Assembly (NCBI RefSeq): GCF_058153355.1
Contig: NZ_CM177019.1
Strand: one strand, 5' to 3'
Length of the DNA stretch: 64,000 nucleotides
A program made the position numbers and the translations under genes. Below the pieces are notes generated by a model. It saw only the letters and a list, made by a program, of their open reading frames with translations, ran no database searches and was not told where the DNA came from. This document shows positions 34,811 to 35,272 of this stretch, piece by piece (the stretch's first letter is position 1; the number at the start of each line of letters is the position of its first letter).

Positions 34811-35272
34811 TCAGTGTTGTATATACAGTAAAATCATGCAGCGAACGCCCATCTGAAACAATTGCGGGCGTGTCAGAAAAAAGTCAAATGAATAAGATGG
34901 ATTATTTTCATAATCAGTCATAAATTTCATCTTTCTTATTTCATGATCAACGATCGCATAGATCTCATGATTAGATTCATCATATCCATAAATGATTTCA
35001 CCACCAGTACTGGCAGTAGCAGTAGCAGTAGCAGTAGCAGTAGCAGTAGCAGTAGCAGTAGCAGTAGCAGTAGCAGTAGCAGTAGCAGTAGCAGTAGCAG
35101 TAGCAGTAGCAGTAGCAGTAGCAGTAGCAGTAGCAGTAGCAGTAGCAGTAGCAGTAGCAGTAGCAGTAGCACTACTACAAATCAACATAATTACAAGTAC
35201 ATATCTAGTCAAGTTGAAAACCCTTAGGGGCGGATGATGTTTTTTCCAAGATGGATTGAAATTTTTCAACAT
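34811..35272 (-). CDS. Hypothetical protein with N-terminal hydrophobic segment and (Ala-Thr)n linker
   Basis: 153-aa ORF: hydrophobic N-terminus (YVLVIMLICSSA), ~26 x AT dipeptide, then ~70-aa C-terminal region; AT-rich context. Confidence 0.4.
   Translation of the reverse strand: MLKNFNPSWKKHHPPLRVFNLTRYVLVIMLICSSATATATATATATATATATATATATATATATATATATATATATATATATATATASTGGEIIYGYDESNHEIYAIVDHEIRKMKFMTDYENNPSYSFDFFLTRPQLFQMGVRCMILLYIQH
35013..35168. repeat. Perfect hexanucleotide microsatellite (GCAGTA)n, ~26 copies
   Basis: Uninterrupted gcagta tandem array read directly from the sequence (~156 bp). Confidence 0.95.

Follow-up and report, generated by a model that had tools for sequence, protein, structure and literature searches.

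In Escherichia coli O157:H7, the VNTRs used in MLVA (e.g., O157-10) consist of perfect units of 6-7 nt that mutate by whole units at rates of 4.4e-5 to 1.8e-3 per generation, with alleles of more than ~13 units being the least stable (PMC3777172). The hexanucleotide array described here, which lies in a 64,000-nt stretch of contig NZ_CM177019.1 (GCF_058153355.1; hereafter "the window"), resembles these loci in its perfect head-to-tail units and in a whole-unit change that is faster than that of SNPs, and it ranges from 1 to 26 units. It differs, however, in both locus and lineage, being found in 3 of 5426 complete E. coli genomes (98.1% identity) and otherwise in strains labelled as cryptic clade I. 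The literature on MLVA and VNTR schemes that we consulted provided general O157 background only, with the present locus not found in any typing scheme.

A further point of comparison is provided by the T6SS islands of Pantoea and Vibrio cholerae, which contain orphan immunity genes or cassettes that combine a displaced effector 3' fragment with an immunity gene (PMC9796082). The array locus is similarly placed, with complete effector-immunity modules ahead of it in a vgrG island of which it occupies the distal end, and likewise keeps an effector 3' fragment and a putative immunity gene; in contrast to the described cassettes, this orphan is degraded (by five frameshifts and a nonsense codon), and it belongs to an uncharacterised family for which sequence searches with intact members gave no match in Pfam, NCBIfam or the PDB. 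By homology to an effector-adjacent family and by its location in the island, it would be assigned to the orphan immunity genes, albeit with a frame that is no longer intact. Finally, as in contingency (phase-variable) SSR loci, we are dealing with a hypermutable simple repeat in a reading frame for an envelope-directed protein, but here a unit of 6 nt is unable to shift the frame, in a host gene that is already inactive, and thus no on/off or graded expression is to be expected. Identity with a contingency locus was ruled out, as the host is a pseudogene and all alleles are in frame.

Taking these comparisons into account, we consider it very probable that the array is a neutral, slipped-strand VNTR that expanded in an already decayed orphan T6SS immunity pseudogene, and that the ORF in which it is found is a by-product of this expansion. 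In this scenario, an immunity-type gene would once have stood downstream of a GH19-like effector gene, at the distal end of the vgrG island, with the effector since reduced to ~66 codons. The repeat would then have grown from a short SSATATAS stretch at the junction between signal peptide and mature protein, and, past a few units, replication slippage would gain and lose whole 6-nt units faster than point mutations build up, with a dead gene imposing no selection against such changes in length.

Structure and Copy Number of the Array

Tandem Repeats Finder describes the array with a period of 6, 26.5 copies, 100% matches, 0 indels and a score of 318 (the coordinates of this and all other features are collected in Table 1), and a regex scan identifies it as the only perfect hexamer array of at least four copies in the 64-kb window. 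A perfectly periodic tract of 159 nt in 64 kb cannot have originated by chance. The array supplies 53 stop-free codons in every frame, and its plus-strand readings (poly-Ser and (Val-Ala)n) were ruled out, as the homology described below is on the minus strand. In the alignment of the family to which the host gene belongs, the array falls where the presumed signal peptide ends and the mature protein begins, where MLICSS-ATATA-STGGEIIYGYD stands opposite, e.g., VCYSVFCYAGNEHGITYGYD. Short alleles show a Ser/Ala/Thr-rich proto-repeat at this position, SSATATAS (SSASASATAS in L009), which is built from GCT-A(C/G)T units.

Table 1. Positions of the features discussed in the text, given in window coordinates unless another locus is named
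Feature	Position	Strand	Basis or remark
Intergenic repeat, 100-nt unit	11589-11784		
mnmH	31824..32918	+	
Intergenic repeat	33040-33372		
137-aa signal-peptide gene (WP_000865233.1 in N96)	33532-33938	-	stop and frameshift in window
Possible further effector fragment	33947-34036	-	weak tblastn match
Pseudogene of the 309-aa, presumably periplasmic family, ~300 codons	34154..35212	-	TTG at 35212 (most likely start) to TGA 34156..34154
Pseudogene frame pieces	35212..34877, 34877..34611, 34614..34303, 34306..34277, 34280..34233, 34228..34154	-	tblastn-guided mapping
In-frame TGA for invariant Cys116	34722..34724	-	inside piece 34877..34611
First frameshift	34877..34882	-	1-nt deletion; T6 (A6 on plus strand), family frame needs T7
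153-aa ORF	34811..35272	-	composite reading frame, not a gene
Perfect hexanucleotide VNTR	35013..35171	-	(GCAGTA)26.5 on plus strand; (GCTACT)26 = (Ala-Thr)26 on coding strand
3' remnant of GH19-like T6SS effector, ~last 66 codons	35205..35412	-	frameshift and in-frame stop
A6 homopolymer (T6 on plus strand)	35240..35245	-	polymorphic in relatives
Intact 323-aa signal-peptide protein; putative immunity gene of second M35-like module	35583..36554	-	selection control
Second M35-like effector	36499-37295	-	stop and frameshift in window
Duplicated VgrG C-terminal fragment, 114-aa ORF	37288..37632	-	window ORFs
ISAs1 transposase fragment	37710-38063	in minus-strand island	window ORFs
273-aa signal-peptide protein	38219..39040	-	N96 annotation, window ORFs
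First M35-like effector	39064..39891	-	N96 annotation, window ORFs
VgrG C-terminal extension	39872-40165	-	
vgrG/tssI, head of island between mnmH and ybbP	39845..42283	-	N96 annotation, window ORFs
580-aa ORF	44054-45796	-	between island and ybbP
ybbP	46379..48793	-	
Intact effector and 309-aa gene pairs (positions on the loci named)	L014/L015 7195-8930; L017 5624-8930; L018-L020 about 1600-4930		gene order

At the DNA level, related Escherichia loci carry the array at the same site and with conserved flanks, and its length always differs by whole 6-nt units. The window contains 26 units as assembled, compared to 15 each in L006 and L008, 12 in L007, three each in L001 and L010, two each in L002, L003, L012 and L013, and one in L011, with L009 having one unit and two GCTAGT variant units. 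Alleles seen at the protein level range from 1 to 5.5 units, adding 3.5, 4.5 and 5.5 to this set, and the assemblies L004 and L005 stop exactly at the base after the array, which would be the expected outcome of an array that is too long for the assembler to span. We note that L006 (15 units) and L007 (12 units) show 0 differences across ~1.1 kb of flank, as is also the case for L001 (3 units) and L002/L003 (2 units), and that the window (26 units) and L008 (15 units) are separated by 4 differing sites in the flank. Copy number thus outpaces point substitution, as differences of 1-3 units are seen between alleles without a single SNP in their flanks, a pattern which would be consistent with replication slippage. 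As alleles differ even where ~1.1 kb of flank is identical, the locus is a possible high-resolution typing marker for island-carrying Escherichia, although the practical value of such a marker would be modest.

The array therefore consists of head-to-tail, identical copies in a polymorphic, whole-unit number between conserved flanks, and is a VNTR. This agrees with the original prediction, which had described a perfect hexanucleotide array of ~26 copies, coding for (Ala-Thr)n on the minus strand and for poly-Ser, poly-Leu or (Val-Ala)n in the other frames, all of which the repeat finder and the translations confirm. The same prediction had considered the array to be prone to slipped-strand changes and proposed checking its copy number in related assemblies, where length indeed varies from 1 to 26 units, and had argued that a hexamer unit would preserve the frame, as it does in all alleles.

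The 153-aa ORF Is a Composite Reading Frame

The ORF that contains the array encodes MLKNFNPSWKKHHPPLRVFNLTRYVLVIMLICSS(AT)26ASTGGEIIYGYDESNHEIYAIVDHEIRKMKFMTDYENNPSYSFDFFLTRPQLFQMGVRCMILLYIQH, with the array following ...MLICSS. It is a by-product, in which stop-free repeat codons bridge the fragments of two decayed genes. Residues 1-20 are the tail of the effector gene read out of frame, which accounts for the odd 20-residue N-terminus of the ORF; residues 21-34 are the putative 14-aa signal peptide of a gene of the 309-aa family, and are followed by the 53 aa of the array; residues 88-132 are, in frame, the first 45 residues of the mature protein, out of ~285; and residues 133-153 are 21 out-of-frame codons past a 1-nt deletion in a T-run. 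A CAG/TAG polymorphism at codon 140 deprives the commonest allele of the last 14 residues, and A5 alleles of the A6 homopolymer (in L010 and in the source of P0021) fuse the frame of the effector tail to the ORF, giving the alternative N-termini of P0003 and P0021. Gene callers disagree on the product, with no fewer than six distinct "proteins" of 61 to 123 aa derived from the locus, and PGAP annotates the ORF in none of the three complete E. coli genomes in which the locus is found. The AlphaFold2 model of the ORF product is uninformative (pLDDT 41.6).

Across 14 alleles, and with the array excluded, we count 3 synonymous and 16 nonsynonymous changes in the ORF, the nonsense polymorphism included, corresponding to a pN/pS of 1.26 that is based on 19 changes only. 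The neighbouring intact 323-aa gene gives 0.29 in the same analysis, and a deliberately wrong-strand control gives 1.20. The density of variable sites is 0.04-0.07 in the ORF vs 0.076 in its flanks. Judged by these substitutions, the ORF shows no purifying selection.

The consensus at the end of a lipoprotein signal peptide, the lipobox, is [LVI][ASTVI][GAS]C (PROSITE PS51257 rule). The Cys residue that precedes the array sits in M-L-I-C, with Ile at -1 and thus outside this consensus, and most intact homologues have no Cys at this position; for both of these reasons, a lipoprotein is not supported. At the level of the protein, then, the original prediction needs to be revised: it had proposed checking the ORF for a lipoprotein signal, of which no canonical lipobox is present, and had seen the repeat as a linker within a protein whose N-terminus is hydrophobic and whose C-terminal domain is short, which proves instead to be a composite inside a pseudogene. 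The locus clearly illustrates that a convincing but spurious ORF can be created by a long simple repeat.

A Pseudogene of the 309-aa Family

The decisive evidence against the ORF as a gene came from a profile search of 1.84 billion representative proteins, which yielded relatives of 161-309 aa (P0029-P0031 and others), which share ...YGYD.SN..IYA....NPSY.FDFF followed by SG.PAI..DSRSLHD.T.YATL...IDCLY..., a continuation that the window has in a different frame directly after FDFF. When P0031, P0029 and P0030 were compared to the window by tblastn, we obtained a colinear match with shifting frames and an in-frame stop. The lesions of this pseudogene are 5 frameshifts and 1 nonsense codon. The first of the frameshifts, in the T-run after ...SYSFDFF, ends the homology in the frame of the ORF, and the nonsense codon replaces an invariant Cys (VKEGI*GLN). 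Once corrected for frame, and with the array collapsed, the translation has 306 aa and aligns end to end with the family at 44-48% identity, keeping 39 of the 44 invariant columns (those lost are C116, through the stop, W203, C241, W285 and C304). The native start is most likely the TTG at 35212 (MTRYVLVIMLIC...), which is also chosen by some gene callers.

The same frame pattern is present in 13/13 relatives, over the region that is covered by their contigs. As all of them share the frame disruptions in this region, the decay predates the divergence of the alleles (up to 5%), and we infer that it also preceded the expansion of the array. We observe, in addition, that two short database proteins from other lineages, P0026 and P0028, show the same out-of-frame switch directly after ...NPSY.FDFF (e.g., ...FDFFQILQQLLLTVDHCMILL); from these sequences, the T-run after FDFF may be a recurrent frameshift site in the family.

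The Effector Remnant and the Probable Intact Effector-Immunity Pair

The TAG (35207..35205) that ends the effector remnant overlaps the TTG start of the pseudogene. The remnant, VSIMIWGMEAGIFT...SYVEKFQSILEKTSSAPKGFQLD*, aligns with ...SYANKFQSILEKTSNIPKDF of the Siccibacter effector, as identified by tblastn with the Klebsiella (267 aa) and Siccibacter (791 aa) effectors. Downstream of the pseudogene, tblastn weakly matched a segment reading VWYFYPIMFLDAINSK...AFVQ (E = 0.009) to the N-terminal region of the GH19-like toxin domain (VWHFHPVVFLDSL...), and this segment may represent a further effector fragment.

The 309-aa family is intact in Klebsiella quasipneumoniae, K. variicola, Buttiauxella, Siccibacter, Cronobacter, Yokenella, Salmonella and Dickeya, with all of these proteins annotated as hypothetical. 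In each of the 20 aligned members, a hydrophobic, signal-like segment at the N-terminus has a small-x-small end (typically SFA) before the conserved YGYD, and conserved Cys residues are present as well. AlphaFold2 gives a confident model of the intact family (pLDDT 79.3), for which a Foldseek search against the PDB returned no meaningful match (TM 0.2 or lower).

In Klebsiella, the 309-aa family gene begins 3 nt after the gene for the 267-aa protein, which itself follows VgrG, and in Siccibacter it begins 2 nt after the gene for the 791-aa protein, which itself follows Hcp and VgrG. The 267-aa protein has 68% identity to the C-terminus of the 791-aa protein, and its matches in the PDB include GH19 chitinases and endolysins of the GH19 type (7r6s, 4ok7, 8p8e and others). 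The same effector-family adjacency is found in Buttiauxella and Edaphovirga, such that the spacing is 2-18 nt over four genera, next to VgrG or Hcp, while Dickeya and Kosakonia have a more distant effector, further upstream of the family gene. This gene order suggests that the 309-aa family is probably the periplasmic immunity partner of a GH19-like peptidoglycan-hydrolase T6SS effector. A cognate effector of the M35-like type that occurs elsewhere in the island was tested and ruled out, and the family was also tested for kinship with the neighbouring 323-aa protein, to which it is unrelated. Although a by-product of our analysis, this uncharacterised pair, of a putative GH19-like T6SS effector and a 309-aa Cys-rich and presumably periplasmic protein, is perhaps of more interest than the array; the pair is intact in Klebsiella, Siccibacter, Buttiauxella and Edaphovirga, and members of the family are also found in Cronobacter, Salmonella, Yokenella, Dickeya and Kosakonia.

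Alternative Explanations

Several observations count against neutrality. The ORF is open in every allele, with two inner indels, a duplication of 6 nt and a deletion of 9 nt, whose lengths are both divisible by three, and a core of ~100 nt (EIIYGYDESNHEIYAIVDHEIRKMKFMTDYENNPS) has fewer substitutions than its flanks, although this stretch was picked post hoc. Together with array changes that are always in frame, an open frame in all alleles is what one would expect if the 153-aa ORF encoded a functional, small exported or membrane-anchored protein, with an (Ala-Thr)n spacer that is tuned in frame by slippage. Its h-region, YVLVIMLI, followed by an Ala-x-Ala-rich sequence, moreover resembles a Sec signal, and it is co-directional with an intact gene and lies 310 nt downstream of it. 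We nevertheless consider a functional protein unlikely, as both ends of the ORF are out-of-frame reads and only 45 of the ~285 mature residues are in frame, as its pN/pS is 1.26 and the stop and A-run polymorphisms alter its C- and N-terminus, as its pLDDT is far below that of the intact family (41.6 vs 79.3), and as promoter-like sites occur at chance level. It is plausible that transcripts read through from the 323-aa gene upstream, and an ORF product may therefore exist. It is conceivable that the remnant ORF was co-opted, with translation starting at ATG 35272 or TTG 35212 and the kept signal peptide directing export, to give a small envelope peptide in which (Ala-Thr)n would form a run of Ala-x-Ala signal-peptidase-like sites, with a length that varies between cells and thereby creates heritable heterogeneity in processing or surface display; we regard this as a highly speculative proposal, with only a slim chance of being correct.

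Hypervariable repeats near genes can modulate transcription in other bacteria, and in principle the array could work through DNA or RNA, irrespective of what it encodes, by forming, e.g., a spacer or structure whose length would modulate the transcription of neighbouring island genes. This would be very surprising, as the nearest intact gene is an upstream one, with its end 410 nt away from the array, as all that follows downstream, up to mnmH, has been pseudogenised in this window, and as the array can be short or long where the backgrounds are otherwise the same. An Rfam scan of 32900..36600 found nothing at the array, and a scan for promoters and terminators found promoter-like sites at chance level and no terminator-like site. 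Perfect low-complexity tracts can also be mis-sized, and two short-read assemblies fail at this site, yet that the long array is an assembly artefact is scarcely credible when three assemblies made independently of one another run through perfect arrays (12, 15 and 15 units) at this position, with identical flanks, and when the contig breaks at the site are themselves what a genuinely long array would produce.

Carriers and Genomic Setting

The array segment has a GC content of 31-34% and lies between mnmH and ybbP, in a window with core genes that are 97.8-99.0% identical to those of E. coli. Close relatives of the ORF product are found in Escherichia only, several of them in strains that carry the label Escherichia sp. 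and "EsCd1" locus tags, and one in STEC_7v, which we take to be a member of cryptic clade I. From these strain labels and this placement of STEC_7v, the background of the locus is probably E. coli-like, cryptic clade I. Beyond the same 3 genomes, a distant DNA search with the whole AT-rich segment against 5426 E. coli genomes recovered only short intergenic repeats at 33040..33372, and the 25-nt upstream flank, used as an exact pattern, had 0 matches in JGI metagenome contigs.

The layout of the island (Table 1) was read from the annotation of strain N96 and from the ORFs of the window. The 114-aa ORF has 60% identity to the VgrG C-terminal extension (...EPEKYTLQFHFTDDDGIPYSETRYIAFFEDGTQ...), and, located directly upstream of the second effector and next to the ISAs1 fragment, it resembles the homology handle of a vgrG-effector module that has been displaced. 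The second M35-like metallopeptidase effector has a Tyr to stop change near 36810 and a frameshift near 36600, and is intact (266 aa) in E. coli N96. The intact 323-aa gene is directly upstream of the array region, in the same orientation, and the 137-aa signal-peptide gene contains a stop and a frameshift in the window. In this genome, the entire distal end of the island is undergoing decay.

Between the island and ybbP, we also observe an ORF of 580 aa with a reverse-transcriptase YADD motif and an HNH-like C-terminus, which, judged by eye, looks like a group II intron maturase/reverse transcriptase. The intergenic repeat next to mnmH is common to thousands of E. coli genomes at 80-95% identity and has sub-threshold Rfam matches, and the other intergenic repeat in Table 1 comprises a 100-nt unit that occurs twice and has REP-like content.
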